From an uncultured Chloroflexia bacterium (GTDB lineage: Bacteria > Chloroflexota > Anaerolineae > CG2-30-64-16), in the NCBI GenBank assembly GCA_963810095.1, contig CAWEMM010000016.1, forward strand, positions 1-20,994: a DNA stretch of 20,994 nt, given 5' to 3'. A model generated the notes under the pieces. The model worked only from the letters and a program-made list of their open reading frames with translations, did not search any database and was not told where the DNA came from. A program made the translations under genes and the position numbers. Positions 2,459-20,994 of this stretch are shown one piece after another; positions within the stretch are counted from its first letter, which is position 1; each line of letters starts with the position of its first letter.

Positions 2459-2557
2459 TGCTGAACCTTGGGCATCCTGAGCGAAGGGCTCGGCGCAGTC
2501 GGATCCTGGGCGACGCCTGCACGCAGTCGAAGGATCGCCCACGGAGAGCGACATTAT

Positions 2558-4357
2558 ATGGCCGAATTGCTCGCAGCTGAGGGATGGGTCAAGGCAGGCT
2601 CGGCAGGGTCGTACCTGAGAGAAAACCTGCCCAGCGACTACATCGTCGTGGCAGACCGCGCGTGTCAGGCCAATCGCTGGCCGCTGCGGTCGTCGGCCAC
2701 GGCGCGCTCTTCCTCATCGAAGACCTCAACGCGGAGCCCGGTAAGGCCGCCGGTCTGCCCGCGTCCGGTGGCAAGAACGGGCACGGTCCGGTGGGCGCAG
2801 CCGAAAACTTCCTCAAGGACGAATTCCCGGCGCTCAAGCTGTTCCTCATGGCCGTGCGCGGCGCGCGCGACTGGGCCGAGGGACCCGTCACCTGGCGGGT
2901 GTCCGAACCGCTGGAGTGGGCGGATCAGCCGCTGGCCGACGTGATCGTGGCCGCCGACAAGGAAGTCGTCGCATCGCTCGACGACGACCAGCGCGAGGAG
3001 CTGGCCATTGGGCTCCGCGACCGGCAGCTGACCGCCAACCAGGCGGCCGGCAAGCCGTTCATGTTCCCCTCCGGCGGCGCATTTCGCACGGGCACCCGCG
3101 TCACCAGTGTCCGCCAGGCGATCGACCACATGGACCGCTACCCCTCAGACGGCGCGCAGGTGCTCCGCGATGGCACGCTGGCAGCCTGGTTCGAGGACGA
3201 AGGCGCGCACCATCTCGCGGGCCTGGCTCGGGATGTGACCCGCCAGTCGAAGACCGACACTCGCATCATGCTCGAGACCTTCCTCCTCGGCACCGGCCTG
3301 GTCGAACGCCCCCGCCTGGTAACCCGGCCCGCCCGGGTGGAGCTGGGGCTGGTCGTCCAGGGGCAGAAGGTGGCACACCGGCTCCGGCTTGAGAACGGAG
3401 CGCGGCAGCCGGGGCTTCCTCTTCGGCAGCGTCACGGCGTGCGGCCCGTGGTTGCGGGTGGAGCCGCGGGAGTTCGCCGGGACGCCGGTTGAATTGGTCG
3501 TGACGGCCGAAACCGGCGCCCTGCCGATTTCGTCCGCATCCTACCTCTCAGACGTCGAGATCAGCTGCAGCGGGAGCGTCGAGCCGATCTGCGTGCCCGT
3601 CACCGTGTCCGTCGTCGCAGCGCCACCCGGGTTCATCCGCCTCGGCGTCCGGCCGCTGGCCGGTTTTCTGCTCGGCGCCCTGATCGGCGCGTTGATCGCG
3701 CTGCTTTGGCGGGCCACGGGTCTCGTCGGCGACCACAACCTGCTCCTCTGGACGATCGCGCTGGCCGCCGTGTGGGGGCTGGCGGGCGGGGTCCGTGCCT
3801 TGCGCCAGCCGGGAGCCTGGCCGACCCGTGTCGCTCTGCCCCGTTGGCTGCTTAAGGTGCTCGCATGGAGCGCCGGCCTCGCCCTCCTGGCCGCGGTGAT
3901 CATGGAAGCGTGGCGTCTTGGGCTGGGCGGTGGGCTTGAGTTCGAGGGTGTGTCGCTGGCAGCCGCGGCAGCAGCCGGCGCGGCATTTGGCTTTGTGGCC
4001 GCCACGCTCGACGAGCTGGCGCACAGCCGGCATGCGAACGACGAAGACTACGTGCATGGCCGGCGGTCCAGCCGGCGGCCCGTGCTCTTCGCCGTGGCAG
4101 GCATCGTGTTGGTGCTGGCCGCGCTGCTGACCCCCCGGGTTATCACGACTGCGGTGAACCGGAGCGAGGTGCAGGCGACGGCGGCGCCCGCACGGAACTG
4201 GGTCGAGGCCCGCTGGAACGAACTGGGCGAGTCGCTGGACAAGCTGACCCGCGACCTGACGATGCGCTACTATGACCGGCCCGCCGGCGTGGTGGGCCCG
4301 ACGCCCACGCCGCCTGTGTCGGGCACGAACATCTTGAAGACCTTGAGCGGCCAGTGA
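2558..4357 (+). CDS. Multidomain membrane protein: degenerate NERD-like N-terminus, helical region, Ig/BACON-like domain, ~5 TM helices; frameshifts near 2657 and 3398
   Basis: Joined from three overlapping frames (MAELLAAEG..., ...PRVSGQSLAAAVVGHGALFLIED..., ...GSRGFLFGSVTACGPWLRVEPREF...). Hydrophobic segments lie between ~3640 and 4150. The stop lies just upstream of tadE. Confidence 0.6.
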
Positions 4358-4383
4358 TGAACGGGATGCGGCGGAGGAGACTT

Positions 4384-4791
4384 ATGAGACGCTCTGAGCG
4401 GGGTGCCAATCTCGTGGAGTTTGCGATCGTGGCGCCGCTGCTGATACTGCTGATTGCCGGTATTGCCGACATCGGCCGCGCATTTCACTCCTATATGATT
4501 ATCACAAATGCTTCACGGGAGGCTGCACGGTACGCGGCGCGCTATCCGCTCCATAACATCGGCATCTGCCAGGCGGCGCTCAACGAAACTACGGGCAGTG
4601 CAGTGACCCTGAACTGCGCGACAGACCTCGCCAAGACGTTTCCCAACGCCAGCTCGGCGGGCGGGCAACCGGTCCGCGTGACGGTCACGATCAACTTCCC
4701 GACAATTATCGGCAGCTTCATCGGGACGAACAACCTGACCTTGAGCGCCCGCACCGAGATGGCGATTTTTGGGTTGGATACTCCGCCCTGA
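4384..4791 (+). CDS. tadE: TadE/TadG-family Flp pilus pseudopilin
   Basis: RRSERG/ANLVEFAIVAPLLILLIAGIADIG class III signal (G|xxxxEF), then ITNASREAARYA. GGAGGAG RBS upstream of ATG 4384. Confidence 0.9.
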   Translation: MRRSERGANLVEFAIVAPLLILLIAGIADIGRAFHSYMIITNASREAARYAARYPLHNIGICQAALNETTGSAVTLNCATDLAKTFPNASSAGGQPVRVTVTINFPTIIGSFIGTNNLTLSARTEMAIFGLDTPP

Positions 4792-4832
4792 GTTTCAGGT
4801 AGGCCCATCCTTAAGTGCAGATGGAGGTACAA

Positions 4833-5938
4833 ATGAAGCGAATCTGGGCCACCACGGCAGAGAACGGGCAAACCCTGGTATGGGTTGCCCTGGCGATGGT
4901 GGTGCTCCTTGCCTTCGTGGGCCTGGCGATAGACGGAGGTGCGGTCTACGCTGAGCGGCGGCGGATGCAGAATGCTGCGGATGCAGGTGCTCTCGCAGGC
5001 GCGGCGGGAAAAATGCTTTGGTACGAATCAGACATGGCCGAACGTCGTTAGCGTGGCCCAGAACTACACGATCGCTCGCAATGGGGCGCAGTCCGCAGCC
5101 GTCACGCCGTTCGAAGGCACGGAGCAGAAGGTTCAGGTAACGGCAGGCACGACAATGCCGACCTCGTTCATCCGCGTGGTCGGCATCAACAGCATACCGG
5201 TGGCCGCGACCGCTGTTGCTGCATGCGGAGAGTCGACGACGCCGTGTGAACTCTGGCCAATCGGATACGACGCGAGCGCCTTCCACCCGACACACTGCGG
5301 GGAGGAATTTCTCCTCTGGGGATCCGAGAACAACAGCGACGTAAGCCAGGAGTTGTGCGGTACGCTCTGCGATTGTGATGTTGACAATGACGGCGTGCAG
5401 GAATACCCGATGGATGGGAGGACCTGGCTCGATTTTTCCAACATCATCCTTGGCGGCACGAGTGATCCGTGCGACGGGCCTGGCTGCGGTGCAGATGAAC
5501 TCAAGTCGCGGATCGTAGGATACCAGTTGCCGCACGGGAGCGCCTGCCTCTCACGCATCTCGATTCCTTCCTGCACGGCGGGTGATGGCGGCGTAATCGC
5601 AAGTGGCTGGAACACGGCCGACAGTATGACGGGTAAGGTCGTCGGCATTCCGCTATACGATGCAGCTCGATCGTATCCGAATACCACTACCTGTACCGTC
5701 ACTGGCGGCACATCTTGCGGCGCCAACCGTCCGTATTGGATTGTCGATGTCGGGTGCGTCAAGATCAAAGGTTCGTACAACCTAAAGGATTGGAGCACAA
5801 ATAAGTGTCCGGGTAACATCAGCAAGGTAATCCTGGTGGAGGTTGCCTGCGGCTCCCAGTGCACCTCGTCGTGCAGTGGCACCGATCGGCAGCCCCTGCG
5901 AGGTCGGTGATATGTGCTCGGTGAGCCTGATCAGGTGA
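4833..5938 (+). CDS. tadG: TadG-like Flp pilus pseudopilin with large Cys-rich C-terminal domain; frameshifts near 5003 and 5887
   Basis: ENG/QTLVWVALAMVVLLAFVGLAIDGG...MQNAADAGALAGA Tad N-terminus after a GGAGG RBS. Continues in the 4939..5910 frame (TMPTSFIRVVGI...AATAVA). The rebuilt end is GSPCEVGDMCSVSLIR* at 5938. Confidence 0.8.
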
Positions 5939-6700
5939 TTCGGGCGGTTGGGCTGGTCCTTGGTGTTGTAGCCGGCCTGGTCGCCGGAGCGGCGGGAAAC
6001 CTTGCGGCGGATAGACTGCCGGAGCGAGCCTCCCGCAGGCGGGCGTAGCGGGCGCCGCGGGAGCGGAAGTCGTCGTATTGGCAGACGGTGCAAGTGGGCT
6101 CCGGGTCGCATGACCGGCCACATCCTCCACTACCTCACCCTGCCCTGGTACTTCTTACCGGGGCCGCTGCCCCCACTGCGGCGAGCGCCGCCCCTTGCGC
6201 GCCCGCTCCTCGAGCTCGCCATGATCGCCGCCTTCGTCCTCATCGCCTGGCGGTTCTCGGCGGACCCGGCCCGCATGGTCCTCTACTGGCTCTACGCCTG
6301 GTTCCTGCTGACCGTGCTCGTCATCGACCTCGAGCACCGGCTCGTGCTGAACGTGATGACCCTGCCCGCCGCAGTCATGGCGCTCGCCGCGAGCTTCCTG
6401 CCCGGCGCGCCCACGCCCGTCGAGGCGCTGCTCGGCGGCGCGGTCGCGTTCGTCGTCTTCTTCCTCATCGCCCTGATCGGCCGGGGCGCGATGGGCATGG
6501 GCGACGTCAAGCTGGCCGGCGTGATCGGGCTCATGGTCGGCTACCCGCTCGTGGTGCCGGCGCTGCTCGCCGGGATCATCCTGGGCGGACTGGCCGCGGC
6601 CCTCCTGCTGATCACGAAACGCGCCACCCGCAAGACGGCCATCGCCTACGCGCCTTACCTCTGTGCCGGCGCGCTCGCGATCCTGGTGTTGATGAAGTAA
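5935..6700 (+). CDS. A24 prepilin peptidase (TadV/CpaA/PilD-like); several frameshifts in the 5' half
   Basis: GTG overlaps the tadG TGA and gives VIRAVGLVLGVVAGLVAGAAGNLAADRLP. GRCPHCG appears in an alternate frame at ~6160-6185. Catalytic aspartates in VLVIDLEHR and MGMGDVKLAG; C-terminal IAYAPYL. Confidence 0.85.
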
Positions 6701-6774
6701 GTGGGCCCGACCGCGGCGGTCCGGCCCGCAAGGGACCTGCGTTTCATGGGCATTGCGCCACGAACGCCCCCTAC

Positions 6775-7640
6775 GGCGACGCGACCCCCTCTTTATGGGC
6801 ATTAACCTGGCGAAGGGCGTAACCTTTGGGGGTTTCGGGGGCGAAGCCCCTGAAGCGGGGGGCGTTGAGGGCAAGCTCGCCCCCAACAATCTAAACCCGC
6901 TCGGCTACACACCACGATTCTGTGGCTCGCGGGATGTGCAAGGCCCGCCTCGCCGACGACCAGCGTTCTGTGTGCAACGTCCCACCAGCGCCCCCCGGTG
7001 ACGATGCGATCCCGCTCTTGACGGCGGTCAACCTCGCCAGGGGCGTCGCGATTGGGGGTCTCGGGGGCGGGGCCAGCTGGCCCCCGCCACAGGAACACCT
7101 CGGCGAGGGTGGCTGGTGCGAGCCTGCCCTCCGCCACGCACGAGACCAGCATTCGTGCCAGGCCATTACAGCAACGCCAGCGGCGCCAGCACACCTGGCG
7201 CCCACGACGGCTCAGCACCGCCAGGAGCGTGCCCTTTGGGGGTTGCGGCGGGCAGCTGGCCACCGCCACAGAGAACCCAAAGGGAGGGTGGCAGGGCCGA
7301 GCCTGTCCTCAGCCTCGCACGAGACCAGCATTCGTGCCAGGCCGTTACAGCAACGCCACCGGCGCCAGCACACCTGGCGCCCAAGCCGCGCTAGCACCGC
7401 CAGGAGCGTACCCATTTGGGGGTCTCGGGGGCGTGCCGCCGCAGCGGGTTGCCCCTGAGGCGGGGGGTGGCGGGGGCCGGCCGGCCCCCGCCGCAGAGAA
7501 GACTTTGGGACCGGGGTGGCCGGGGGCCAGCCGGCTTCCGCCGCAGAGAACCCAGAGGTGAGGGTGGCGGGGCGAGCCGGTCCCCGCCAAAAAGAAGACT
7601 TTGGGACCGGTGGTGGGGGCCAGCCGGTCCCCACCGAAAA
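6775..7640. repeat. Composite REP/BIME-like repeat region (179-bp tandem duplication plus ~48-bp palindromic units)
   Basis: 7137-7204 is near identical to 7316-7383 (period 179). A (A/T)TTGGGGGT(C/T)TCGGGGGC-like core occurs at 6825, 7051, 7235 and 7415. GGCGGGG..CCCCGCC-type hairpins at ~7066, 7247, 7469, 7518, 7566 and 7612. Confidence 0.8.
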
Positions 7641-7661
7641 GGCATAATCCCGGAGTACACC

Positions 7662-8041
7662 ATGACGCCACCAAGCAAAACCTACCAACTCGTCAACACC
7701 ACGAACGGCACGACCATCGCCGGTTGCACCCGCCTCGCCGACAACCCCTGGACCAGCTTCAAGGGCCTCATGGGCGCCGCGCCGCTGCCCGCGGGCGCGG
7801 CCCTCCTGATCACCCCCTCCTCCTCCATCCACACCCACTTCATGCGCTTCGCCATTGAGTTCTTTATGTCAATAAAGACGACACCATCGTGGGCATCGAC
7901 CGGGACCTGAAGCCCTGGCGCTTCGGCCACTTCTACAAGAGCGTCAAATACGTCGTCGAAATGTCCTCCGGCGGCGCGGGGATTGCCAGGTGGGAGACGA
8001 GAATCGACCTTCACCCCGCGCTGCCGGACGGCGAGGGATAA
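7662..8041 (+). CDS. DUF192 domain protein; frameshifts near 7865 and 7975-8000
   Basis: LADNPWTSFKGLMG...LLITPSSSIHTHFMRFAI, then in another frame IVGIDRDLKPWRF...KYVVEMSSG. These are DUF192 hallmarks, and the family is often found at Tad loci. Confidence 0.8.
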
Positions 8042-8139
8042 AATAGGACACTGATTGAACGGATCGGACTGATGATCACGATCTTTACCCAATGGACCGT
8101 GCAGATCAGTTCAATCAGTTGCATCAGTGTCCCATTTCA
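8011..8139. repeat. Copy 1 of a ~130-bp dispersed palindromic element with 9-bp periodicity
   Basis: GGACACTGAT (8046-8055) pairs with ATCAGTGTCC (8123-8132). Closely matches 10082-10211. Lies between convergent genes. Confidence 0.85.
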
Positions 8140-8201
8140 CATCAGAAGATCATGTCAATGCATCCGGGCCGCGTCATCAGCGTCCCACAACGGTTCTATT
8201 C

Positions 8202-8835
8202 CTATGCCAAGAGTGCTTTCGCCAGGCGAACGGCCGAGGACGCATCGGGGCTGTAACCGTCCGCGCCGATCTGCCTGGCAAACCCGTCCGTCACGGGCAC
8301 GCCGCCGATCATGACCTTGACTTGGTCGCGCAGCCCGGCCTCTTCGAGCGCCTTGATCGTGCCGGTCATCGACGGCATGGTCGTGGTGAGCAGGGCGCGA
8401 CATGCCAATCACTTGCGGCTTGTGCTCTTGCACGGCCTTGACGAACTTGTCAGGGGTGACGTCGGTGCCCAGGTCCACCACCTCGAACCCCGCGCCCTCC
8501 AGCATCATGGCGACCAGGTTCTTGCCGATGTCGTGCAGGTCGCCCTTGACGGTGCCGACCACGACCTTGCCGGCCGACACCGCTCCGGCATCCGCCAGGT
8601 GCGGCTTGAGGAGCACCAGTCCGGCCTGCATCGCCCGGGCCGAAACCAGCATTTCGGGCACGAAGTACTCATTTTCTTCGAACAGCCGGCCCACCTCCGC
8701 CATCGCGGAGATCAGCCCGTCGCTGAGTATGACCTCCGGCGCAACCCCGGCGCCGAGCGCGGCCTGCACACCCGCCTTCGCCGCGGGCGCATCGCCTTCA
8801 AGCACGGCCTGGTAAAGCGATTCAAGCTGTGTCAC
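8202..8835 (-). CDS. Corrinoid (cobalamin-binding) protein, MtaC/MtbC-like; frameshift near 8397
   Basis: Cap domain (GLISAMAEVGRLFEENEYFVPEML), GTVKGDLHDIGKNLV (DxHxxG), GMS-ALLTTTM, KVMIGG, IGADGYSPDA. Confidence 0.93.
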
Positions 8836-8847
8836 GTTTCCTCCTCG

Positions 8848-9980
8848 TTATTGGCTCAGGGGCGTCTCGGTGATCGTGCGGACCAGCGCCCACAGGTTCT
8901 CCATCGGCGTGTCAAGTTGCACGTGGTGCGTGGGCCCGATGATCAGGCCCCCACCTCGGCCCACGGTCGCCAGTCGCTGGCAGACCTCGTCCCGCACCTG
9001 CTCGGGCGTGCCGAACGGCAGCGTGTACTGTTCGTCGATCGTGCCCCAGAAGCACAACCGGTCCCCATACTGGCGCTTCAACTCGGCCGGGTCCATGCAC
9101 GCGGGCTGGATCGGGTTCAGGACGTCGACGCCGACCTCGATCAACTCGGGGATGATCGGCGTCATGTTGCCGTCCGAGTGGTAGGCCACTTTCAGCGCCG
9201 GGTTGATCCCTTGATCGTGCTGATGAACTCGCCATCCTGGGCTTGAGGAACTTGCGCCAGTGCCGCGGCGAGATGAGCATCCCGTGCTGCTGCCCCACGT
9301 CGTCGCCGATCCAGATCATGTCGACGCCCATCTCGGTGAGCCGCTTCGCCGCGGCAAGATGGTAGCGGAAGGGGATCTCGAGGATCGCGTCGGCAAGGTC
9401 GGGATCGCTCACGAAGTCGGACAGCAGCCGCTCATACCCGCGCAGCGCCCACGCGCACTCAAAGATCGTAGTGACCGTGACGCCGACAATCCAATACTCG
9501 TCCTTCAGCGTCCGGATGACCCGCTCGGCCTCCACGTAGAGCTCGGGCCGGTTTGGGTCGGGTGCGCGGTATTGCGAGAGCGCGCCCTTGTCCGCCAGCG
9601 GATGGCCGGTCAGCTCGGTGTATTGCCCCACCCCGTAAGGGCGTCTCGTAGGGGACATTGTGAAAGCCAATGCCCCACTCGTCCACATAGTCGTGCTCGG
9701 AGGCGTAGTACGAGTTCGCCCACCCCACCGACGTCTGGAGCATGTCCTCGTCAAGCGCCATTTCGAGCTCGTACGTGTTGCCGCCCGCCGTGCGGGTTGT
9801 GCGCCGCCGCAGGGAGACCGGCCCCATCGCTTTGAGGCCGGTCTCCCTGTGGCGCGTCCCTTTGAGGGCCAGGTCCGCACGGAGGCGCTCGGCGAACTCG
9901 GGCGTGAAGCTGATCGACATAGGGCAGCGGTCGGGACACGCGCCGTTCAGCGCAGCCCAGACCCGTTCACGATGTTTCAT
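8848..9980 (-). CDS. Uroporphyrinogen decarboxylase / MtaA-CmuA methyltransferase family protein (paralog 3); several frameshifts
   Basis: MKHRERVWAALNGACPDRCP start, DEWGI, FECAWALRGYERLL, IGDDVG, YHSDGN, LNPIQP, FWGTIDEQYTLPFGTPEQVR, GGLIIGPTH. Confidence 0.85.
9805..9854. repeat. Palindrome inside the paralog 3 coding sequence
   Basis: CGCCGCAGGGAGACCGGCC (9805-9823) and GGCCGGTCTCCCTGTGGCG (9836-9854): 19-bp stem with one G-T pair, 12-nt loop. Confidence 0.8.
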
Positions 9981-10081
9981 CGTTACCTCGAATAATCGCA
10001 TCATCCGGACCCTCGGGGGTTGCGCCTCCTAGGGTCTCGCATCTTCGCGTCAAGCCACGCGTCTGGCCCCAAAATAGACAC

Positions 10082-10211
10082 TCACCCCGCACGCCCCGAC
10101 AACGAGGGAGAGAATAGGACACTGATTGAAAGGATCTGACTGATTATCGTGATCATTCTCCCTAGGGACAGTGCAGATCAATTCAATCAGTTGCATCAGT
10201 GTCCCATTTCA
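10082..10211. repeat. Copy 2 of the ~130-bp dispersed palindromic element
   Basis: TCACCCCGC...AATAGGACACTGATTGAA...GTGCAGATCA(A/G)TTCAATCAGTTGCATCAGTGTCCCATTTCA, same orientation as 8011-8139, offset ~2071 bp. Confidence 0.85.
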
Positions 10212-10218
10212 GACCAGT

Positions 10219-11394
10219 CTAGTACCATCCGCATTCGAGTGCGGTCTTGGCATACGCCTCGACGTTCGCCTCCGGGGTGCCCCACTCGAGAAAGTCGACC
10301 GGCTGCATGATGAACTTCCCGCCCGGCTTGCCGATCTCCATCGCCTTCCGCGTCGCGGCCACGACATCGTCGGCGGTGCCGTTCTGGATGACGTTGACCT
10401 GGTCGATGCCCGAGAGCATCACGTACGCGCCGTCCACCAGCGCCCGGGCTTTGGCCAGATCCGCATCGCCCAACGGGTGGGGCGAGAATGGCTCGACGAT
10501 CTGCGCGCCCAGATCCTTGTACGACTCGACGAGCGCCATCACCAGCCCACAGTTGTGATACATGGCAGGCGTCCCGTTTGCCTGCACCAGGTCGATATAC
10601 CGTTTTTCGTACGGCAGCACGTACTTATCATAGTTCTTGCGCCCCAGCATGCCGCCCGGCACGTTGCCGCCGATGCAGTGGACGTCGACGCCGGCCTCGT
10701 CGATCGCCTTGAGATAATCTGCCACCCGGTCGATGGAGAAGTTCATCAGGCGATCGTAGTAGTCGGGCTCGGTTCGGAAGAGGCTGTAGAGTTGCTCGTG
10801 GTCTATTATCAGCGATGCCGTGTTGAAGGGTCCATGCGGCGACCAGGTGCCAAGAATACCGCTGTCGCCCAGTGCCTCGCGCACGGGCCGGATGCGCTCC
10901 TTGACCTGCGCCGGCCACGACGGCGCCATGCGCGGCTCGTACTCGATCGCGATCTCCAGGTCGTCGGGCCCGCAGACCGGTTTCTTGGTGCAGGCAAACA
11001 TGAGCGTGCCCGGGCGCAGCTCGTTGATCGAGAAATCCTGCGTCAGGGTGCCCTTTGGCGTGCGGATAGTCGACCGCTTGATCAGCGTGTTGCCGTTCTG
11101 CACGTCGACCGTCGTGACTTCCCAGTTCTCCGTCTGGTTCGTCACGTCGAGCCCGCCGTAAATCCAGTGGATCGGGTCACAGACGCCGTAAAGCAGCCGC
11201 ACGAAGACGTCGAGCCCCAACGACTTCTGGTACTCGATGACCTTAATCTGCAGGGCGGTCGAGTCCCACGGGTCGATGTCCGGGTAGAGCTGGCTGAGAT
11301 AGTGTCCCTGGTCGGCCAGGAACAGCGTGCTAGGCACGCGGTCGGGCATCTCGCCGTTGATCACCTTAAGGAAACGTTCGCGGGAAGTCATCAT
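10219..11394 (-). CDS. Uroporphyrinogen decarboxylase / MtaA-CmuA methyltransferase family protein (paralog 2), intact
   Basis: MTSRERFLKVINGEMPDRVP, IRTPKGTLT, GPFNTA, YHNCG, LSGIDQV, GGKFIM, GTPEANV. GGAGG RBS upstream. Confidence 0.9.
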   Translation of the reverse strand: MMTSRERFLKVINGEMPDRVPSTLFLADQGHYLSQLYPDIDPWDSTALQIKVIEYQKSLGLDVFVRLLYGVCDPIHWIYGGLDVTNQTENWEVTTVDVQNGNTLIKRSTIRTPKGTLTQDFSINELRPGTLMFACTKKPVCGPDDLEIAIEYEPRMAPSWPAQVKERIRPVREALGDSGILGTWSPHGPFNTASLIIDHEQLYSLFRTEPDYYDRLMNFSIDRVADYLKAIDEAGVDVHCIGGNVPGGMLGRKNYDKYVLPYEKRYIDLVQANGTPAMYHNCGLVMALVESYKDLGAQIVEPFSPHPLGDADLAKARALVDGAYVMLSGIDQVNVIQNGTADDVVAATRKAMEIGKPGGKFIMQPVDFLEWGTPEANVEAYAKTALECGWY

Positions 11395-11457
11395 GGTTGC
11401 TCCTCCATTGAGCCTGGTTGTATGAGGGCCGGCCTCGCTTTGGTCGCCGTGTCCCGG

Positions 11458-12626
11458 CTAGGCAGCCAGCGCCGACAGCATTTCCGTTCGCATGGCGTCC
11501 TGCACCTGCCGGGTCAGCTGCTCCGCATCGCGCTGGAGCACCTGGTACTTGCCGTTGTCGAGCGCGAACATTGGAGAAATGAAGCTCGCCACGATCAGGC
11601 CCTGTGGGTCGACGTGCCGGAACAGCTCGCGAAAGTACGCTTGGGGCTCGGTCGGCGCAAAATCGCACGCCATGATCAGCATGCGCTCGCCCAGCGTCTT
11701 CTGCAGGTGCGCCAACCGGGCGAAGTCGCCCAGGCAGAAGTTGTTGATCCCGATCAAGCCATCTGTGGCGGCGAAGTTCGCCAGTTGGTGATCCGCGCTG
11801 CCACAGAAATGGAGCGTGCCCCCGCCAAACGCCTGGAACACCCGGCTATTGTATGGCACGACGAACTCACGGTACAGCCGGGCCGACACCAGGCTGCAGT
11901 CGTCGTCCGAAATCCACACACCGCCCAGGCCGTCGGGCAGCCAGATGGCGTGGGGAACGCGCCCCCATCGAGCGGTTGGCCCGCGTGGAGTTTTTGCACC
12001 CGGATCCACTCGATGAGCGCCTCGGTGCAGAAGTCCATGAGGGCATGGACGGCAGGGGCGTCGTCGTACATCCACATAAACAGCTTCTCGACCCCCGCAA
12101 TCGACAGCGCGATGTTGAGCGGCCCCTGCGCGTCGGTGACTCCGACGGGCAAATCCGTCGTCGCCCGCATGTAGTCGATCGCTGCCAGGACCACAGGCAT
12201 CTGGCCGTCGCGGTACGGGTCGGGCATCTGGAGCTTGGCGATGTCGGCGGGAGAAGTGAGGATCGGGCCGCGTAGACTCGGATCGCCGTCCGGCTTGTAG
12301 ACCACTTCGCAGCCCAGTGCGGAAGGCACAACGGTCGTCCCGAACCACGGCATGAGAAACGGCACATAGTCGTCTTCGATGCTCTCGAGATGGCGCCGGA
12401 TCTTGTTCACCTGAAAGTCGGTCATGGCCGCCGGATTGGTGAAATAGTCAGCCGGAATCAGGTCGGGCACCTCCCCGTCCATCCAGTAGTTGACGTCCTG
12501 CGTCAGCAAGGGGGGCGTGCCCGGAGTGTGCCGGTACGCCTCCGCAATGCGCGCTTTTGCAGCTGCAATCCGGGCCTGATACTGGCCGGCGACGCTTACG
12601 CCAGGGGGTGCGCTGGTTGCATTCAT
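11458..12626 (-). CDS. Uroporphyrinogen decarboxylase / MtaA-CmuA methyltransferase family protein (paralog 1); frameshift near 11955
   Basis: VPSALGCEV, MPDPYRDGQMP, TDAQGPLNIA, LFMWMYDD, ISDDDCSLVS..YREFVVPY, LHFCG. AAGGAG RBS upstream. Confidence 0.85.
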
Positions 12627-12679
12627 GGCCTACTCCTTACCTCGACCGCGCTCGCATGGATTGGCCGCCGTCGACCCCA

Positions 12680-13670
12680 TCACGCTGCTTCGCCCGCCAG
12701 GTGAACGGTTAACCACCACTGTCTAGTTTCGCCGGCCGGGATGCGCGCCCACCTCGCCTGACCTGCAGGCCAGCTCCAGGCTGTCGTAGTATCCCGTGGC
12801 CGGTTCGGGGGTGACGGCAGGCTCTCCGTTGAAGGCCCCTTCGTCGATCCAGAGCCCGAGGTATGGAACTTCGGCCGGATCCCATCGCATCGTCAGCGAT
12901 CCCTCGCCCCCGGCTCGCTCGACCCGGCACCAGTCGACGCGCCGGTCGGGTGCCAGGTAATACTTGCGGCCCGCGCACGTGTCCACACCCCGCACCCGGT
13001 TGAGCTCCACCCGCTGGCCATCCGGGCCGGCCTCTTCCGGCCACCCATGCCGGGCGCCCGGCTCGCCCCACCCCCAGCTTTCGGGGAGCACGTTGTGCAC
13101 CTCGTCGACCTCGGGCGGCAGCACCAGCCGGCCCCCTTCGCCGCACGCGAACTGGGGATGCGGAGTCCAAAGATAAGCGAAGGCTTCCTCGCCCAGGTTC
13201 ACGAGGGTGTACTCGATGGTCATCTTCCGTTCGCGCCCGAGTCTGAGCCGCCGTGTAAGCCGGTAGGGCAGGACCCGCCCGGCCACGGTGAGCGACACCT
13301 CGTCTTCGGGCCCCTCTTCGAGCCCCTCGGCGACGCCCTCACCGAAGGCCCACGGCAGCGACCACGCCTCGCCATGATCCGGAAGGGCTTGACCCGTGTA
13401 GGGCCCGGGCTCGGGGTACACGCAGCTCGAGATCGTCGGGAACATCTCGTCCCAGCCGCTCATGTCGTATTCGGTGTAGGCCGCCCCGAGTGTGGCCGGC
13501 CGCACGCTCCGGTTGCCGGGCCCTGCCATCCACTCGAAACCCGTCACACAGTCGTAGATGGAAGCGATCTTGCCACCCAATTCGGGCACCATGACTACCC
13601 GCAAGGACCCGTTCTCGAGCGCCACTGCGGCAAAGCCGTGCCAAGTAGCCCGTCGTTTGGAGACGTTCAC
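12680..13670 (-). CDS. Aldose 1-epimerase / galactose mutarotase-fold protein; probable frameshift near 12750
   Basis: LENGSLRVVMVPELGGKIASI, GWDEMFPT, LPDHGEAW, YLWTPHP, PYLGLW, PEPATG. The rebuilt end is ARIPAGETRQWWLTVHLAGEAA* at 12680; the ORF track stops at 12723. Confidence 0.8.
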
Positions 13671-13710
13671 TCTTACCTCCTCGGCTCAGCGCCGAAGTTG
13701 GCCGGATGGG

Positions 13711-14721
13711 TCAGCGGGTCCGGCGGGTTTGCAGGAGCACGGCAAAGATCAGCAGCAGGCCGCGGGCAAGCATCTGGTAGAAGATCGGCACGCCGAGGAT
13801 GACCATGCCGTTGCTCAGGGTCCCGATGATCAGTACGCCGAGCATAGTCCCCCAAAGCGTACCCTTGCCGCCCGCCAACGCTGTCCCGCCCAGCACGGCC
13901 GCGGTGATTGCCTGAAAGTTAAGGTCCGTCTGGGTGGTCGTCGGGATTCCGGAATTGGTCCGCCCGGTGCTGATCACTGCGGCCAGGCCGCAGATCAGGC
14001 CGCCCAGCATGTAAACGGCCATGCGGTACTTATTGAGATTGATGCCCGCCAGCCGGGCCGCGTCCGGGTTGCCGCCGAGGGCATAGTAGTTCCGGCCCAG
14101 GTCGGTGCGCGTCAGGAAGATGGTCATCAGGGTGAACACCACGGCCAGGATGATCACGGGAATGGGAACGCCCGCCACCCGGCCGTTGCCGATCATGTTG
14201 AAGGTGTCGTTTGACACCCCGATCGCCTGCCCGCCCGTCACCAGGTACGCGAGCCCGGAAAAGACGGATACCGTCGCTAGCGTCGTGATGACCGGATTGA
14301 TCCGTCCCACGGTCACGAGTGTGCCATTGAGGCTGCCTGCGAGGACGCCGGTCAGCATTCCCGCAACCACGCCCGCAACCCAGCTGCCGGTGGTGCTCAC
14401 GGCCAAGGCGGCGACCACCGACGACAACCCCACGAGCGCGCTCATGGACACGTCGAGCCCGCCCGAGATCATGATCGTCGTCTGCGCGATGGCGGCCAGG
14501 CCCGTCACGGAGATTGCCAGGACGATGTTGAGCATGTTGACGGGGCGCAGAAACTTGCTCGGCGCCAGGATCGTAAGCAGCGCAAACAGCAGCACCAGCG
14601 CAATCAGGAGCCCCGCTTGCTCAGAGCGGAACAGCTGCCCCACGCCGGCCTTGAGTCGCGTTGCAAGCGAAGGGCCGCCAAGGTTGGAGCCGGATTGTGC
14701 CGGCCGGGTGCCATCAGTCAT
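13711..14721 (-). CDS. Monosaccharide ABC transporter permease (RbsC/AraH family)
   Basis: MISGGLDVS, INPVITTLAT, GRNYYALGGNPDAARLAGI (EAA loop), FQAITAAVLGGTALAGGKG; multiple TM helices. Confidence 0.93.
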   Translation of the reverse strand: MTDGTRPAQSGSNLGGPSLATRLKAGVGQLFRSEQAGLLIALVLLFALLTILAPSKFLRPVNMLNIVLAISVTGLAAIAQTTIMISGGLDVSMSALVGLSSVVAALAVSTTGSWVAGVVAGMLTGVLAGSLNGTLVTVGRINPVITTLATVSVFSGLAYLVTGGQAIGVSNDTFNMIGNGRVAGVPIPVIILAVVFTLMTIFLTRTDLGRNYYALGGNPDAARLAGINLNKYRMAVYMLGGLICGLAAVISTGRTNSGIPTTTQTDLNFQAITAAVLGGTALAGGKGTLWGTMLGVLIIGTLSNGMVILGVPIFYQMLARGLLLIFAVLLQTRRTR

Positions 14722-14771
14722 GGTAACGCTTCCTTCGTCTGAGCGCGGTCCGGTCGGGTGAGCACCGGCGC

Positions 14772-16304
14772 TCACTCCTGCGAACCCGCGGTCAGGTGGT
14801 CCACCATTGCCAGTCGCAGGATCGCTTCCTCGCTGGCGCCTTCGCCGGGCATCTCGCCTGTGATCCGGCCGTTCTGCATCACCAGGATCCGGTCGGCCAC
14901 CCCGAGAATCTCGGGAAGCTCCGACGAGATGAAAATGACGCCAATCCCGCGGGCCGCAAGTTGGCGGACAAGCTCGTAGATTTCGGCCTTGGCGCCCACG
15001 TCGATCCCGCGCGTTGGCTCGTCGAGGATGAGCAGTCGGGGGTTGCGCGCCAGCCACCGTCCGAGCACCACCTTTTGCTGGTTGCCCCCGCTTAACTTGC
15101 TGATGGTTTGCTGGATGCCCGTGGTCTTCACCCGGAGCTGGCGCACCTGCTCTGAGACAAGCTCAACCTCGCGCCGCCGGTTCACAAACCTGAAGCGGGT
15201 AAGCTGGCCGAGGATGGCCACGCTCATGTTGTCCTTGACGCTTAACAGCGGGAAGATGGCTTCGTGCTTGCGGTCCTCTGGCGTCAGGCCAATCCCCGAG
15301 GCCATGCCGTCCTCCGGGTTATGCAGCTCGACGGCTTTCCCGTCGATCCGAATCTCGCCCGACGTGATGGGGCTGGCGCCGAAGATGGCCCGCGCAAGCT
15401 CGGTCCGTCCTGCCCCGATCAAGCCGGCAAACCCGACGACCTCGCCGCAATTGACCTGGAATGTGACGCCGTGGACGCCCGGCGCGTGCAAGTCTCGCAC
15501 GTCGAGCACCACGTCCGAGAGGCAGTTGCTGGTGCGCTCCTCCCGGCTCAGCTGCCGGCCGACCATCAGTTTGACCAGGTCGTCCTCGCAGCAGTCGCCC
15601 GCGGGCACGTTGCCCACCAGCACGCCATCCCGCAGCACTGCCACCCGGTTGGCCACCCGCAGCACCTCGCGCAGCCGGTGCGAGACGTAGATGATCCCCA
15701 CGCCGGCCTCGACGAGCGTTTGGATGATCTTGTACAGCCGGCTGGCCTCTTCGTCGCCTAGCGACGAGGTCGGCTCGTCAAGCGCCAGCACCCGAACCCC
15801 TGTTTGAGCGCCTTGAAGATCTCCACGAGCTGGCGCTGCGCCGGGCTGAGGCGGTGGGCGGGCAGTCGAGGGGAGGATTTCACCTTCGAAGCCGAACTGT
15901 GCGATCAACGCCCGGGTGTCCTCGTGCAGCTTCCGCCAGTCGACCAGCCGGCCGTGGCGCGGCAGCTCGCCGGCGAACACGTTCTCGGCCACGCTCAAAT
16001 CCGGGATCAACTCGGGCTCCTGGTAGATCACGCGGATGCCGGCCTCGTGCGCCGCACGCGGGGAAGCAAAACTGGCGGGCGACCCGTTGAGCCAGATCTC
16101 GCCGCTGTCCGCCTGGTAGTCGCCGTTGATAATCCTGAGCAGTGTCGACTTGCCCGCCCCGTTCTCGCCGATGAGCGCCAACACCTCGCATCTGCGCACT
16201 TCCAGCGACACGTTATTGAGCGCTTGTACGTTGGGAAACGCCTTTGAAATGCCTCGAATTTCGAGAACAGGCGCCGCATCAGGTGCTGAAGCAGACATAT
16301 CCAT
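14772..16304 (-). CDS. Monosaccharide ABC transporter ATP-binding protein with two ABC domains (RbsA/AraG family); compensating frameshifts ~15800-15860
   Basis: GENGAGKST, IYQE, LALDEPTSSL, YVSHRL, GLIGAGRTE, LSGGNQQKV, ILDEPTRGIDVGAK. Start may be at 16298 instead. Confidence 0.93.
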   Translation of the reverse strand: MDMSASAPDAAPVLEIRGISKAFPNVQALNNVSLEVRRCEVLALIGENGAGKSTLLRIINGDYQADSGEIWLNGSPASFASPRAAHEAGIRVIYQEPELIPDLSVAENVFAGELPRHGRLVDWRKLHEDTRALIAQFGFEGEILPSTARPPPQPGAAPARGDLQGAQTGVRVLALDEPTSSLGDEEASRLYKIIQTLVEAGVGIIYVSHRLREVLRVANRVAVLRDGVLVGNVPAGDCCEDDLVKLMVGRQLSREERTSNCLSDVVLDVRDLHAPGVHGVTFQVNCGEVVGFAGLIGAGRTELARAIFGASPITSGEIRIDGKAVELHNPEDGMASGIGLTPEDRKHEAIFPLLSVKDNMSVAILGQLTRFRFVNRRREVELVSEQVRQLRVKTTGIQQTISKLSGGNQQKVVLGRWLARNPRLLILDEPTRGIDVGAKAEIYELVRQLAARGIGVIFISSELPEILGVADRILVMQNGRITGEMPGEGASEEAILRLAMVDHLTAGSQE

Positions 16305-16327
16305 GGACCCTGCCTGATTCTGAGAAC

Positions 16328-16352
16328 GTGGGGCGTGCCGACCGCGCCCCAC
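16328..16352 (-). other. Intergenic hairpin after the binding-protein gene (possible mRNA-stabilising or partial terminator stem)
   Basis: GTGGGGCG (16328-16335) pairs with CGCCCCAC (16345-16352); no clear U tract. Confidence 0.45.
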
Positions 16353-16367
16353 ACGATGGCTCGATCC

Positions 16368-17467
16368 TTACTTGCAGCCGACGATCGACGTCTTGTAGTT
16401 CGTCGGGTCGACGTAGCTCCCCTGGGCGATCGTGTTCTCGGGCAGCGGCGTTCCCTTGGTCAGGTACTCGTACATCGCCTTCCCGGCCAGTTCGCCATGC
16501 ACCGCAGGATTGATGTACACCGCGGACTTGAAGCCGGTGGGCTTGCCCTTGTTCCACTCGTCGCAGGCCATGTGCGCGCCCAGCCCGACGCCGATGATGT
16601 TGTCGGCCGAGACCCCGGCGTTTTCAAGGGAGCGCACCGCACCCAGCACGCCGTCGTCATTGCATGACCACAGCACCCAGTGGGTGACCTCAGGATGGGC
16701 GGTGATGAAGGCGGGGAACGAATCGACCGCGCCCTTCAGCGTCCCGTCGTAGTCCATGGTCAGCATGTTTTCCTTGGGGAAGTCGGGCAGCGCCTTCTGC
16801 CACGCCTTGGTTGCGTTGTCCGTGCGGTCCTGGCAGACCGACAGCGTCGGCAGCTGGATGGCCACAGTACGGACCACGGCTTTCGGGTCCTTGTCCCAGC
16901 CCGATGCCTGGTAGAGCTCGACGGCCTTCTCGCCCACCTGGCGGCCGATCTCCGATGCGACGATGCCGACAAACGGGGCCTGCTTCTTGGCGTCATCCCA
17001 GAGATAGTCGTCGACGGTTACGACCGGAATCTTCGCCTCGGCGGCCTTCTTAAGGACCGCGGGGCCGATTTTCTGGTCCGGGGCGACGATGACGATGCCG
17101 CTCGTGCCCGACCCGATGGCCTGGTCGACCGCGTTCATCGCCAGGTTCGCGTCCAGCTGCACGTCCTGCACGGTCACGTTCATACCGACCGACTTGCCGA
17201 AGTCCTTGAGGCCCTGCGCCTCGCCGACGAACCACGGGTTGTCGCCCATCTTGACGATGTAGCTGACCGTCAGGTCCTTCGCCGCGACCGGTTCCGGCGC
17301 CTTGGTGGGCTCGGGTGCTTTGGTGGCCTCCGGTGCTTTAGTTGCTTCGGCGGCGGGCGCCGTGGTCGGCGCGGGGCGGCGGGGGCGGGTGCGCTGGGGG
17401 TGGCACATGCTTGCAGCAGCAGTGCGGTGATGACCAGCGCCATGAGCAGATAGGTGCGCGCCTTCAT
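16368..17467 (-). CDS. Sugar ABC substrate-binding lipoprotein, L-arabinose-binding (AraF)-like; frameshift near 17385
   Basis: MKARTYLLMALVITALLLQAC lipobox after a GGAGG RBS, then an APEATK/APEPTK linker. VK....PWF, VDD, HPEVTHW, NDDGVLGAVR, IIGVG, TGF and P.VHG follow the AraF motif order. Confidence 0.88.
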
Positions 17468-17619: not shown

Positions 17620-20600
17620 CTATGTGCCGGCCGGGGTACGCTCCCGGAACTCGCGCGGTGACACTCCCGTTTCCTGGCGGAAGACCCGGCTGAAGTAGGC
17701 GGGGTCGTCGTAGCCCACGGCCTGTGCGATGGTCGAGACGTCCTGCTGGGTCCCGCGTGAGCAGGCGCCGGGCACAGTTGATGCGGTAACGGCGGAGGTA
17801 GTCCCACAGCGAAATGCCAACCTCCCGGCGGAAGATGTTGCCCAGGTATGCTTCGTTGACCCCGACCTCCGCGGCAATATCGCCCCGCGACAGCGGCCGG
17901 CTGTAGTTCTCGTGCAGGAACTGCACGGCCTGCTTGACGATCCGGCTGGTGTGCGTCCCGGGGCGTTCGTCGTTGCGCAATACGTCTTGCAGCAGCGTTC
18001 CGAGCTCAGCCTCAGAGAGCACCTCCTTGTCCTCGAATACTACGCGGCTGTGGCGTTCGAGCCGCCGGAGGTTTTCGACGGTCAGCGCCCGCCCGCTCAT
18101 GATGATGACCGGCACGGTCCGGAAGCGCGGGTCCGCCCGCAAGCGGTCGAGGAAGTCGAACCCGTCCATCTCCGGCATCGCCAGGTCCAGAAGTACCAGC
18201 CCGGGCGCGCGTTCCAGTACGAGCGCCCATGCGGCTGCGCCGTCGCCTGCCTCGACCACCTCGTGCCCCGGCAGCGCCCTCTCCACCGCCGCCCGGTGCA
18301 GCGCCCTTGCCTGGTGATCGTCGTCAACCACGTAGATAGGCGCCGATGGCGCGTCCGCGGTAAGCGCCCGCAGCGCTTCGACCAGGGTGGCAGGTGCAGC
18401 CGGCTTCATGACGAATCCCGTATCACCCACCCGTTGCCCGGCCTCGGCCGGTCCCGGCGCATCCACCTGCCCGGCGCTGTCCGCATACGCGATGAACGGC
18501 AGCTGCGACGCCAGGGGGTGACACGACAGACGTTGGATGAGCGCCCACCCCGCGGGGCTGGCATCGCCCGCGTCCCACCCGATCGCTGCTGGCCGGTGCT
18601 CGGCCAGGAATGAGCTCACGTTGTCTCCCGGCCTGAGACGGCGCACCTGGAGACCCTGGGCGAGGGCCAGCGCCTGAAGACGCGGCGACGGCACGGCCTG
18701 CGACGAGAGCCACGCCAGCACCGGGCCGCCCTCGACGTCGAAATGCCCCAGCCGCTCCCCTACGAGCGACGGCAGCGGCAGGTAGATATGGAAGATGCTC
18801 CCGTGCCCCACCTGGCTCTCCAGCCGCATGTTGCCGCCGTGCAACGTAACCAACTGCCGGGTGATCGACAGCCCCAACCCGATGCCTTCCCCCCGGGCTC
18901 GCTGCCCCGATGTGACGAACGGCTGGAAGACCTCGTCCTGCATGTCGTCCGAAATGCCGGTTCCGGTGTCGGCCACCCATACATGGAGGTGCGGCGGCGC
19001 GACCTCCGCGCCCAGGCTGATGTGCCCGCGCTCGGTGAACTTGCCGGCGTTACTCAACAGGTTGAGCAAGACCTGGCGCAGCCGGAGCGGGTCCGCCCGC
19101 AATAGGGGCAGGCTCTCGGGTAGCTCGAGCCGCCACTCCAGGTCGTCCCGGCCCTTGCCCTCCGAGAACGCGGAGAAGACCTCGGTCATGAACTGGCGCA
19201 CGTCCATGACTTCCGGATACAACTCCAGTTCGCCCACCTCGGCCCGGGAAAGGTCGAGCAGGTCGCCGATGATGCGCCGGAGATGCTCGGCGTGGCGCTG
19301 GATGTGAACCAGGTCCGCCCGGCCCGCGTGTGTCAGCGCAGGCGCGTTCTCGGGCTGCAGCAGCGTCTGCACGTGCCCCAGGATCACGCTCAGCGGGGTT
19401 CGCAGCTCGTGGCTGACGTTCGCCAGCAGCCGGCTCTTCAGCAGGTCGGCCTTCTCGGCCGCTGCCCGCGCCTCGAGAGCGGTCGTGTACAAGTGCGAGT
19501 TCTCGACCGCGACGCCGATCTGGTCGGCCAACAACTGCAGGCCGATGAGGTCCTGGTGTGTGCGCAGCATCAACTGGTTGCTGTGCAGGTCGAGCACGCC
19601 CCACAGCTTCCCTGACACCCGGATCGGGAGCGCCACCCGGGTCCGGGTGTCAGGCGACTCGGGATCGGGCGCAAAACGGGTGCTGCGCTGGGTGTCAGGG
19701 ATGAAAACCGGTTCACCGTCGAACACGGCCCGGCCGAGCGCGCCCAGCGGGTCGAGCGAGAAGGGGCGTTCCGGCGCGCTTCCTGCCAACCCCTCGAGCA
19801 CCAGCACGCCGGGCTCCTCGAGCCAGCGGAAGATACGAATCCGGTCGTAGCCGTAGTTCGTCCGGATGGCGTCGAGGATCTCGGACGACAAGCGTTCCGC
19901 GTCCAGCGTTCCGCCCACTTTCCGGCCCATCGCAAGGCTGGTTTCCAGTTGCTTGACCCGCTCGGCCTGCTCGCGGCGTCGCTGGCCCACCAGGCGGTCA
20001 GGCAGGCTGGAGATTTCGGTCAGCTTTTGCGCGGCGACCTCGGCCAGGTTCTCCGCCGTCACCAACCCGAACTGGTACCGGAAGTGCGCCGGCAGCGGCG
20101 TGCCCGTGGCGGCCTGGATCGCCAGCTTCAGCCCGATCCGGCCGAGCCGGTCCGTGCGGATGTCTACGGTCGCGCCCATGCTGTGCTGGCTCATCGCGGT
20201 CAGGCCGGCCGGCGTGCCCCCGATGCCGACGACGATGGTGTCCGCGGCGAGGCAGTTGAGGCGCCGGCCCGCGTCCCGGGCGGCCAGGGCCACCGCGTCC
20301 GACATGCCGATGACCGCCTCGAAAGGCCGGCAAATCGCCGGCAGCCTCGCTTCGACCGCTGCAACTGCGGCGTCGTAGTTCCAACGGGTCGGGATGTGAT
20401 CCACCTGGAGGCCGGGGCACGCGGCGGCGAAATCGCGGACTCCGGCCAGCCGGTGTGCCCCGTTGTCCTGCCACCCGCTCACGCCGAGTCCGCCAACGGC
20501 CACGATATGCTTCGGGCCGTCAAGTTTCTGATAGAGGTAACTCATTGCCAGCCGCGCCATGTCGTACATGCCCTCGCCCGAGCAGAGCAAGGGGTGGCGC

Positions 20601-20887
20601 GCGTCGGTCTCGCCCAGCAGAATCAGCGGGATGCCGCGTTCGGGGATCTGGAGCAGCAGGTTCTCGGGGAGCGCCCAGACGATGAGCGCCTGGAGGTCGC
20701 TGGCGACGAGTTCTTCGAGGATAGCCTCCTGCTCCACAGGGCCAGGAATCTCCCCGTACGCCGGCACATAGACGGGAAACAGCTCGACGTGCAGCCGCTC
20801 GGCGTATTCCGATATCGCCTCACTGACCTGGACCCAAAAAGGATCGTGCGGCAGGATCGCCGATCCGATACGCAGGGTTGGCCTCAT
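17620..20887 (-). CDS. Soluble hybrid sensor/regulator: PBP/LacI-type sugar-binding, GAF, HisKA, HATPase, degenerate REC, REC, AraC HTH; frameshift near 17755
   Basis: HDPFWVQV and IGMSDAVALAA (PBP); VALPIRVSGKLWGVLDLHS (GAF); SHELRTPL; NLLSNAGKFT / DTGTGI / GIGLGL; VVDDD and LDLAMPEMDG; IAQAVGYDDPAYFSRVFRQETGVSP in the 17620..17877 frame. Confidence 0.9.
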
Positions 20888-20994
20888 CTCAGACTCCGGC
20901 GGCAATGCTCGTGTGCGGTTCAAGGGGAAGTCGACGCGTGGCAGCCGGGGCAGGTCCGCCCTTCGCACCCGCTGCGGCAGATAAGGCGAGGTTA

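Follow-up and report, generated by a model that had tools for sequence, protein, structure and literature searches.

The window analysed here is a complete contig (C16) of 20,994 bases and 65.7% G+C, part of the 6.13 Mb, 16-contig assembly GCA_963810095.1 of an uncultured Chloroflexota bacterium, and it holds a gene cluster that joins a sugar ATP-binding cassette (ABC) transporter to proteins related to methyl transfer. From ~20968 down to 8202 every gene lies on the minus strand. An earlier note, made from the sequence alone, had described a co-directional run at 8202-17467: an AraF/G/H-like sugar transporter, an enzyme of mutarotase fold, three members of the UroD/MtaA family and a corrinoid protein with the DxHxxG motif. 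Our analysis recovers all of these on the minus strand and agrees with both ends to the base, as the stop codon of the corrinoid gene ends at 8202 and the signal peptide of the binding protein starts at 17467. The genes of the cluster are as follows, UroD1, UroD2 and UroD3 being our names for the three paralogs.

8202-8835, minus: MtaC/MtgC-like corrinoid protein (B12-binding_2 78.4 bits, B12-binding 67.4 bits)
8848-9980, minus: UroD1, the most MtaA-like paralog (tblastn frames; HSD...THH at the places of the MtaA zinc ligands)
10219-11394, minus: UroD2, UroD/MtaA superfamily, intact (URO-D 89.4 bits; HxC motif YHNCG)
11458-12626, minus: UroD3, UroD superfamily (URO-D 74.5 bits for the N-terminal piece; HxC motif LHFCG)
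12680-13670, minus: mutarotase-fold protein (alignments, fold model, Foldseek)
13711-14721, minus: AraH-like permease, intact (BPD_transp_2 129 bits)
14772-16352, minus: AraG-like ABC ATPase with two ATP-binding domains (ABC_tran in two stretches, 162 bits)
16368-17467, minus: AraF-like periplasmic sugar-binding protein of the CUT2 type (Peripla_BP_4 97.8 bits)
17620-20968, minus: hybrid regulator with a sugar-binding-protein-like domain, GAF, HisKA/HATPase, a receiver and an AraC-type helix-turn-helix (HTH) domain (Pfam)

The transporter resembles AraFGH at scores below the L-arabinose equivalog thresholds. The best NCBIfam match of the ATPase is AraG (515.7 bits, cut-off 689), and that of the permease is AraH (239.8 bits, cut-off 378). 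Two types of binding protein occur in clusters of this kind, and both are nearest to the L-arabinose-binding protein of E. coli, which is the closest solved relative of the protein in the window (E 1e-39; 8e-30 for the other type). The E. coli protein also binds D-galactose and D-fucose. Its positions 107, 108, 204, 232 and 235, which we take to be sugar contacts, are changed in the aligned binding proteins. The C-terminal HTH of the regulator lies in a different frame from the rest and matches HTH_AraC and HTH_18.

The mutarotase-fold call fails by sequence and stands by fold. Aldose_epim (PF01263) scores 19.3 bits against a cut-off of 27, an intact ortholog has no match in Pfam or NCBIfam, and the best sequence match in the Protein Data Bank reaches only E 0.13, so a fold search was used instead. 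The model (predicted local distance difference test, pLDDT, 93; predicted template modelling score 0.92) has galactose mutarotase-like structures as its best Foldseek matches (E 1e-16 to 1e-14), among them 3k25, 3q1n, 3mwx and 4bze (E 1e-16 to 4e-15), with target-normalised template modelling scores of 0.65-0.75. H101, H192 and E310, in DHGE, HPQF and EP motifs, are invariant as alignment positions across 41 mutarotase-like sequences and are candidate equivalents of the catalytic His, His and Glu of GalM. A protein with DUF5107 and TPR domains lies near the mutarotase-like gene in 28 of the 80 related loci described below (e.g. L043:13553-16840); it is unusually conserved, with 68-85% identity over ~390 residues, Paenibacillus and Cohnella included, and its solved relative 5cd6 is also among the fold matches of the mutarotase-like model.

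UroD paralogs, corrinoid protein and methyl-transfer genes

Several cluster genes are interrupted in the assembly, and intact orthologs from relatives were used where stated. All three paralogs exceed the gathering cut-off of URO-D (PF01208, 23.9 bits), with UroD1 reaching 34.3 (middle piece) and 47.6 bits in pieces and 105.7 bits as an intact ortholog. They fall below the cut-off of MtaA/CmuA (TIGR01463, 235.4 bits), for which UroD2 scores 80.9, the UroD1 ortholog 78.1 and the UroD3 piece 50.0 bits, and UroD2 likewise falls below that of HemE (TIGR01464; 27.2 against 302.95 bits). The true hemE of this genome is a separate gene at C11:71450-72468, with a full-length URO-D match of 351 bits plus a split piece.

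UroD1 finds its best match in methylcobalamin:coenzyme M methyltransferase MtaA both by sequence (4ay7, E 5e-11) and by fold (Foldseek E 5e-16); the cobalamin-independent methyltransferase MetE is also among its fold matches. In MtaA the zinc-ligand motif is, as we take it, His-x-Cys...Cys, and by the alignment to 4ay7 these positions become HxD...H in UroD1 (HSD and THH). UroD2 and UroD3 keep the HxC half only, and the complete MtaA motif is thus absent from all three. Across 24 UroD1 orthologs H258 and H342 are invariant and D260 nearly so. We infer that the His/Asp/His site of UroD1 would be better suited to an ether, an alkoxide or another oxygen ligand than to a thiolate, and UroD2 and UroD3, which retain half of the zinc motif, could be second-step methyltransferases. 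Two further UroD types of related clusters carry comparable residues at conserved positions: H252, D254, E338 and H340 in a 389-residue type, and H310 and H397 in a 421-residue type. A search of the ESM Atlas with the 389-residue type returned unnamed URO-D clusters only. UroD3 distantly resembles a 367-residue type that adjoins corrinoid genes in relatives (25% identity, E 1.6e-5).

The corrinoid protein has the architecture of proteins that serve methyltransferases, with PF02607 and PF02310 both above their cut-offs and DLHDIG present, and its DxHxxG motif (GDLHDIGKN) lies at 8518-8544. An intact ortholog scores 224.5 bits to MtgC_2 and 191.2 bits to TIGR02370, just under the subfamily cut-off of 215.3. 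Complex prediction for UroD1 and the adjacent corrinoid protein of a related locus (L034, in Brevefilum) gave a score of 0.76, and the best of 3 controls gave 0.00. The mark set for this score was reached by 58 of 80 solved complexes and by 2 of 110 mismatched pairs, a calibration that is only approximate, since the alignments were our own. At least 96% of contacts are common to the runs, the partner has a pLDDT of at least 84, and the modelled interface brings the DxHxxG loop (94-100) together with D255 and residues 340-342 of UroD1. The B12 face of the corrinoid protein is thereby predicted to sit on the HxD...H site.

No folate methyltransferase or corrinoid reactivase was found among the larger frames of the window, as the earlier note had stated, although the first of these absences may be softened if UroD2 and UroD3 are counted as candidate second-step methyltransferases. 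The note had further suggested that a methyl-tetrahydrofolate:corrinoid methyltransferase, a RACo/RamA activator and Wood-Ljungdahl genes be sought in the rest of the genome, and candidates for each were found there. Pterin_bind has four matches, one of them beside corrinoid and RACo genes at C6:63-67 kb and one near acs genes; RACo_C_ter has three (RACo/RamA-type activators) and CdhC/AcsB one (acetyl-CoA synthase). The activator and the pterin methyltransferase of a three-component O-demethylase are therefore present outside the window. RACo also occurs in 38 of the 41 relatives searched, including 24 of 24 of the family. In 11 relatives one class of RACo_C_ter match is interrupted internally by one in-frame stop codon, either TGA, TAG or TAA (e.g. 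G034:C56:22151-22897 and G024:C3:209738-210493).

Conserved linkage and galactose genes

To survey the neighbourhood of the cluster, one genome per species was searched with an alignment of the mutarotase-like protein; 296 stretches matched, 210 of them encoded a relative, and the best 80 were kept as loci. Since many loci end at contig edges, the counts given here are lower bounds. UroD-like genes occur in 44 of the 80, directly adjacent and on the same strand in 37. A UroD-like gene is joined by a CUT2 ABC transporter in 35 loci, a corrinoid protein is also present in 15, and in 11 loci the corrinoid gene adjoins UroD1. Relatives from the same family have these genes arranged as binding protein(s), ATPase, permease, 421-residue UroD, mutarotase-like gene, UroD1 and 389-residue UroD, with a variant that includes the corrinoid protein. 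The carriers are mostly Anaerolineae, Caldilineae and Thermoflexales, and the mutarotase-like gene alone is also found in Cohnella, Paenibacillus and Cellulomonas. The earlier note had asked whether linkage to sugar ABC and corrinoid genes recurs. In many Chloroflexota genomes UroD-like genes do stand together with a sugar ABC transporter and the mutarotase-like gene, in some loci accompanied by a corrinoid gene and in others not. UroD2 itself had no match in the 80 loci (tblastn panel) and was found in 8 of 201 genomes of the class at E <= 1e-40, this genome counted.

The same pattern is seen within the genome, where 44 URO-D matches merge into 39 genes. Sixteen of these lie within 10 kb of a CUT2 ABC component, a zone that covers 6.9% of the genome, and nine lie within 10 kb of a corrinoid protein (2.4% of the genome). 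These counts are not independent, because the genes sit in a handful of loci; the linkage is nonetheless more than chance.

Methyl-transfer genes extend some of the related clusters. In L034 a Pterin_bind methyltransferase, a DUF1638 protein and a methylene-tetrahydrofolate reductase follow the cluster (Pfam), and L068 and L031, both related to L034, hold parts of this arrangement. The pterin-type methyltransferase is downstream in two loci and the reductase in one of these. A different kind of neighbour follows the 389-residue UroD gene in two loci by Pfam (L034:12265-14550 and L088:12212-14497): a 761-residue protein in which a di-iron domain of the fatty-acid-desaturase type is fused to a Rieske domain and an FAD/NAD reductase. 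Five further UroD-bearing loci contain this protein by tblastn, seven in total, and it might act on the same substrate as an alternative that depends on O2.

A kinase, isomerase, dehydrogenase or glycosidase is missing from the larger frames of the window, in agreement with the earlier note, and enzymes of galactose metabolism appear in related clusters. Pfam places both GalK and GalT within the cluster or immediately behind it in L044 and L040, tblastn finds GalK in or beside it in L041 and GalT in L022, and in L044 a UroD gene stands between GalT and the rest of the cluster. In a sample of 200 genomes of the class UroD2 has a single close ortholog (66% identity), placed between another UroD-like gene and GalT. 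GalK also lies with a UroD-like gene and a regulator of LacI type at C12:334.7-338 kb of the genome studied here. In Paenibacillus a glycoside hydrolase family 36 (GH36) alpha-galactosidase is followed by the mutarotase-like gene, and in Cohnella a GH4 enzyme is a neighbour. The AraF-like binding proteins, the linkage to GalK and GalT, the GH36 enzyme and the mutarotase fold point to an imported sugar of galactose configuration.

Frameshifts, repeats and the contig

Compared with intact orthologs from relatives, the cluster contains ~12 frame changes in 12.8 kb, on which the earlier note had not remarked. Only UroD2 and the permease are intact, and seven genes are interrupted. A shift at ~17760-17800 fuses the regulator frame to the next gene, and one at ~17370-17400 leaves the signal peptide of the binding protein in another frame. 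In the ATPase a compensating pair near 15864 and ~15810 garbles the first signature motif. The mutarotase-like gene is shifted at 12748, near its C-terminus, and UroD3 at ~11950. UroD1 has five shifts (~9860, 9783, 9641, 9232 and 9211, from tblastn frames and from indels against a second copy on contig C12), and the corrinoid gene has one at 8397, beyond which its C-terminal half is open in another frame.

These frameshifts are most likely consensus errors of a long-read assembly, and the genes are probably intact in the organism. Public short-read contigs from four runs differ from the window by one base exactly at 8397, 9783/9784, 9860, 12748 and 15864, having one base fewer at 8397 (one contig), 12748 (contigs of two runs) and 15864 (one contig). 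The matching pieces are 151-351 bases long with 0-1 other differences; the runs hold small shares of the window (0.06-0.15 of its words) and were used for these indel checks alone. The near-identical contigs that lack the indel at these five sites, the location of the indels relative to the C12 copy within short runs of G or C, with that copy having indels of its own, and the split matches seen in other contigs of the assembly, including true hemE, are the reasons for this reading. Past each shift the other frame moreover remains open and conserved. The same observations speak against a decaying, non-functional duplicate in which the frameshifts are real and the genes are pseudogenes. The density of frameshifts, the transposase at the start of the contig and the 90-95% identity of parts of the window to C12:273.8-281.7 kb would fit such a duplicate, which we nevertheless consider extremely improbable.

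The remaining features of the window are as follows.

10-1248, at the very start of the contig: IS481-type transposase (rve, HTH and LZ_Tnp_IS481 domains)
after the transposase, plus: DnaB_C-like ATPase and prepilin peptidase
8002-8146, directly downstream of the corrinoid gene: copy of a ~140-base dispersed repeat
10073-10211, between UroD2 and UroD1: copy of the same repeat, 83% identical to 8002-8139

The IS481-family transposase is a likely cause of the break in the assembly. The ~140-base repeat is relatively A+T-rich, matches 25 other places of the genome at 79-92% identity and, in the copy at 8002-8146, folds as a long hairpin (-66.1 kcal/mol, z -4.99); it looks like a repetitive extragenic palindromic or miniature inverted-repeat transposable element. 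Its two copies bracket the pair of UroD1 and corrinoid gene. Large parts of 1363-10057 are 90-95% identical to C12:273801-281700, which carries a UroD1 copy without corrinoid gene and without transporter; that region may have arisen by paralogous duplication, or it may belong to a variant strain whose DNA was binned with this genome. Tandem repeats fill parts of a non-coding, G+C-rich stretch, at 7067-7430 (period 179, 2 copies, 86% matches) and 7465-7636 (period 50, 3.6 copies). A search of the window against Rfam gave nothing at gathering scores.

Candidate pathway, alternatives and known systems

From the gene content, the folds, the synteny, the linkage to galactose genes and the accessory genes of the genome we infer a methylated substrate, a direction of methyl transfer and an assignment of the paralogs to steps. 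We posit, tentatively and at a little less than an even chance, that the locus is a carbohydrate uptake and processing operon for the O2-independent, corrinoid-dependent demethylation of a methylated galactose-type sugar. The AraFGH-like CUT2 transporter would import a galactose- or arabinose-configured sugar that bears a methyl ether, with mono-O-methyl-D-galactose or a methyl galactoside as candidates. Enzymes of the UroD/MtaA superfamily would bind this sugar at a putative metal site, of His/Asp/His type in UroD1 and HxC type in UroD2 and UroD3, and the methyl group would be moved to the Co(I) corrinoid of the MtaC-like protein. From the methyl-corrinoid, a pterin-type methyltransferase from elsewhere in the genome would hand the methyl group to tetrahydrofolate, or an HxC paralog would hand it to another acceptor, and it would then enter the Wood-Ljungdahl pathway. 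The freed galactose would be anomerised by the mutarotase-like protein and pass into the Leloir pathway, while RACo/RamA-type activators encoded elsewhere would keep the corrinoid reduced.

The idea that a methylated sugar is demethylated here was raised in the earlier note, and the recurrent linkage and the accessory genes favour it and sharpen the sugar from pentose- or galactose-like to galactose-type. Several observations weigh against it. No feature of the sequence requires the sugar to be methylated. Apart from methanol itself, no alkyl (sugar) methyl ether is known to us to be attacked by a corrinoid. The UroD paralogs are far under the MtaA/CmuA cut-off (~45-81 against 235.4 bits), and the score of the predicted complex may stem from a resemblance to solved complexes of corrinoid proteins instead of from this particular pair. 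The mutarotase-like gene stands alone, with no UroD-like gene found, in 36 of the 80 loci; GalK or GalT is adjacent in just four, plus two other places; and the neighbouring pterin methyltransferase and methylene-tetrahydrofolate reductase count as one lineage, because those loci are closely related. Of the 44 loci with UroD-like genes, just 15 have a corrinoid gene within the fetched DNA. The 389-residue UroD, which accompanies the mutarotase-like gene most constantly (33 loci), usually has none beside it, and the commonest minimal form, of transporter, mutarotase-like gene and 389-residue UroD, contains none. In this genome 30 of the 39 UroD-like genes are without a corrinoid gene within 10 kb. 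Ten more UroD-like genes at C14:64000-93000 and C14:264000-291000, again with no corrinoid gene nearby, have as neighbours glucuronate isomerase (UxaC), tagaturonate epimerase (UxaE), KduI/IolB, xylose-isomerase-like barrels and an FGGY kinase, together with regulators of the LacI and SorC types and ABC transporters of CUT1 or Opp type. Under this pattern, either the idea widens to methylated uronates or these enzymes have a corrinoid-free role.

Such a role could extend to the cluster itself. The UroD-like enzymes would then act on the imported sugar without a corrinoid, by MetE-like direct methyl transfer to a thiol or folate or by a non-methyl reaction new for the fold, and the corrinoid protein would serve only UroD1 or an unrelated methyl donor. 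The clusters that lack a corrinoid gene, half or more of the total, the C14 neighbourhoods and the presence of MetE among the fold matches agree with this explanation. The adjacency of the corrinoid gene to UroD1 in 11 loci and the predicted complex of the two, which passes its controls, do not, and the several corrinoid proteins and RACo activators of these genomes could act in trans; on balance we judge it unlikely, though deserving of serious attention. A distinctly improbable explanation, in our view, is that the transporter imports plain galactose or arabinose and that the methyltransferase module, merely co-located or co-regulated, handles a methyl donor that is not a sugar, for instance methanol, a methylated sulfur compound or a methoxylated aromatic. 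The substrates of UroD-superfamily corrinoid methyltransferases in the available text of PMC10418091 are indeed non-sugars, the hairpin repeat parts UroD1 and the corrinoid gene from the transporter section, and the C12 copy of UroD1 is found without any transporter. Mere co-location is harder to reconcile with the placement of UroD-like genes in 37 of the 80 loci and in several orders, where they follow the mutarotase-like gene directly or separate it from the permease, or with the UroD gene of L044 next to GalT. The replacement of the thiol-type ligands of MtaA by His/Asp/His in UroD1 and the changed positions of the binding proteins also tell against it.

The system could in principle run in reverse, with methyl-corrinoid used to O-methylate a sugar, imported or internal, that might go into a methylated polysaccharide or osmolyte. 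Methyl transfer by corrinoids is reversible in principle, and such enzymes have reportedly been used in shuttle catalysis. The cluster, however, is centred on an uptake transporter and catabolic Leloir genes, and no glycosyltransferase or export gene recurs in the annotated flanks, so that we regard this direction as very improbable. Decarboxylation of a uronate to arabinose by a UroD-type decarboxylase was set aside, because related clusters carry GalK, GalT and a corrinoid protein and because UroD chemistry requires a pyrrole electron sink.

Polysaccharides of algae, plants and microbes commonly contain methylated sugars, which block ordinary sugar catabolism. The sole carbohydrate demethylase that we found in the literature is an O2-dependent cytochrome P450 (available text of PMC6292453 and PMC10033563). 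Our literature search, whose coverage excluded many subscription journals, found no corrinoid- or UroD-linked sugar demethylase. If demethylation of a galactose-type sugar is the function of the cluster, it would add a new substrate class for corrinoid methyltransferases, explain the large expansion of UroD-like genes in the abundant Chloroflexota of sludge, soil and sediment, and tie polysaccharide breakdown to C1 and acetogenic metabolism. A broader idea, which we consider somewhat unlikely as it stands, is that Anaerolineae and related Chloroflexota carry a large unrecognised toolkit of UroD-fold, O2-independent carbohydrate O-demethylases (~39 paralogs here). Placed in sugar and uronate uptake loci and sharing corrinoid proteins, these would remove methyl ethers from sugars of the galactose type, perhaps from methylated uronic acids too, and pass the methyl groups to the Wood-Ljungdahl pathway, as an anaerobic counterpart of the P450 sugar demethylase.

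Among known systems, the MtaA and MtbA methylcobamide:coenzyme M methyltransferases (4ay7) share the barrel with UroD1, which has a conserved triad at the zinc-ligand positions. UroD1 is just 20% identical, far under the family cut-offs, and has His/Asp/His in place of His/Cys/Cys. We know of no coenzyme M metabolism in Chloroflexota. The E. coli AraFGH system with GalM, GalK and GalT provides the nearest relatives of the transporter, the mutarotase fold and the galactose enzymes of related clusters, but all scores here are under the equivalog cut-offs and the five positions of the arabinose-binding protein are changed.

The UroD superfamily includes corrinoid O-, S- and halogen-demethylases (available text of PMC10418091). 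The mlp gene clusters of type 1 (Kountz and Balskus, PMC10418091) are also bacterial clusters of MtaA-like and corrinoid proteins outside methanogenesis. According to the available text they are tied to methyl-sulfur or methyl-selenium metabolism, and the words "sugar" and "ABC transporter" are absent from that text. In the same account mlp proteins have >25% identity to characterised coenzyme M methyltransferases, and on these grounds membership of the locus in this group was rejected.

The corrinoid O-demethylase systems of Acetobacterium, Desulfitobacterium, Moorella and the archaeal Mto type, which consist of methyltransferase I, corrinoid protein, methyltransferase II and activating enzyme, are compared with this locus by gene content. 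The likeness lies in the UroD-superfamily gene next to an MtaC-like DxHxxG protein and in the RACo/RamA activators, pterin-type methyl-tetrahydrofolate methyltransferases and acetyl-CoA synthase gene of this genome. Their known substrates are aryl methyl ethers, whereas the partners here are a CUT2 transporter, a mutarotase-fold protein and Leloir genes. The 6-O-methyl-D-galactose demethylase of marine Bacteroidota, the cytochrome P450 mentioned above, is O2-dependent, yields formaldehyde, belongs to an unrelated family and uses no corrinoid; as the candidate pathway proposed here would, it frees galactose of its methyl ether for catabolism.

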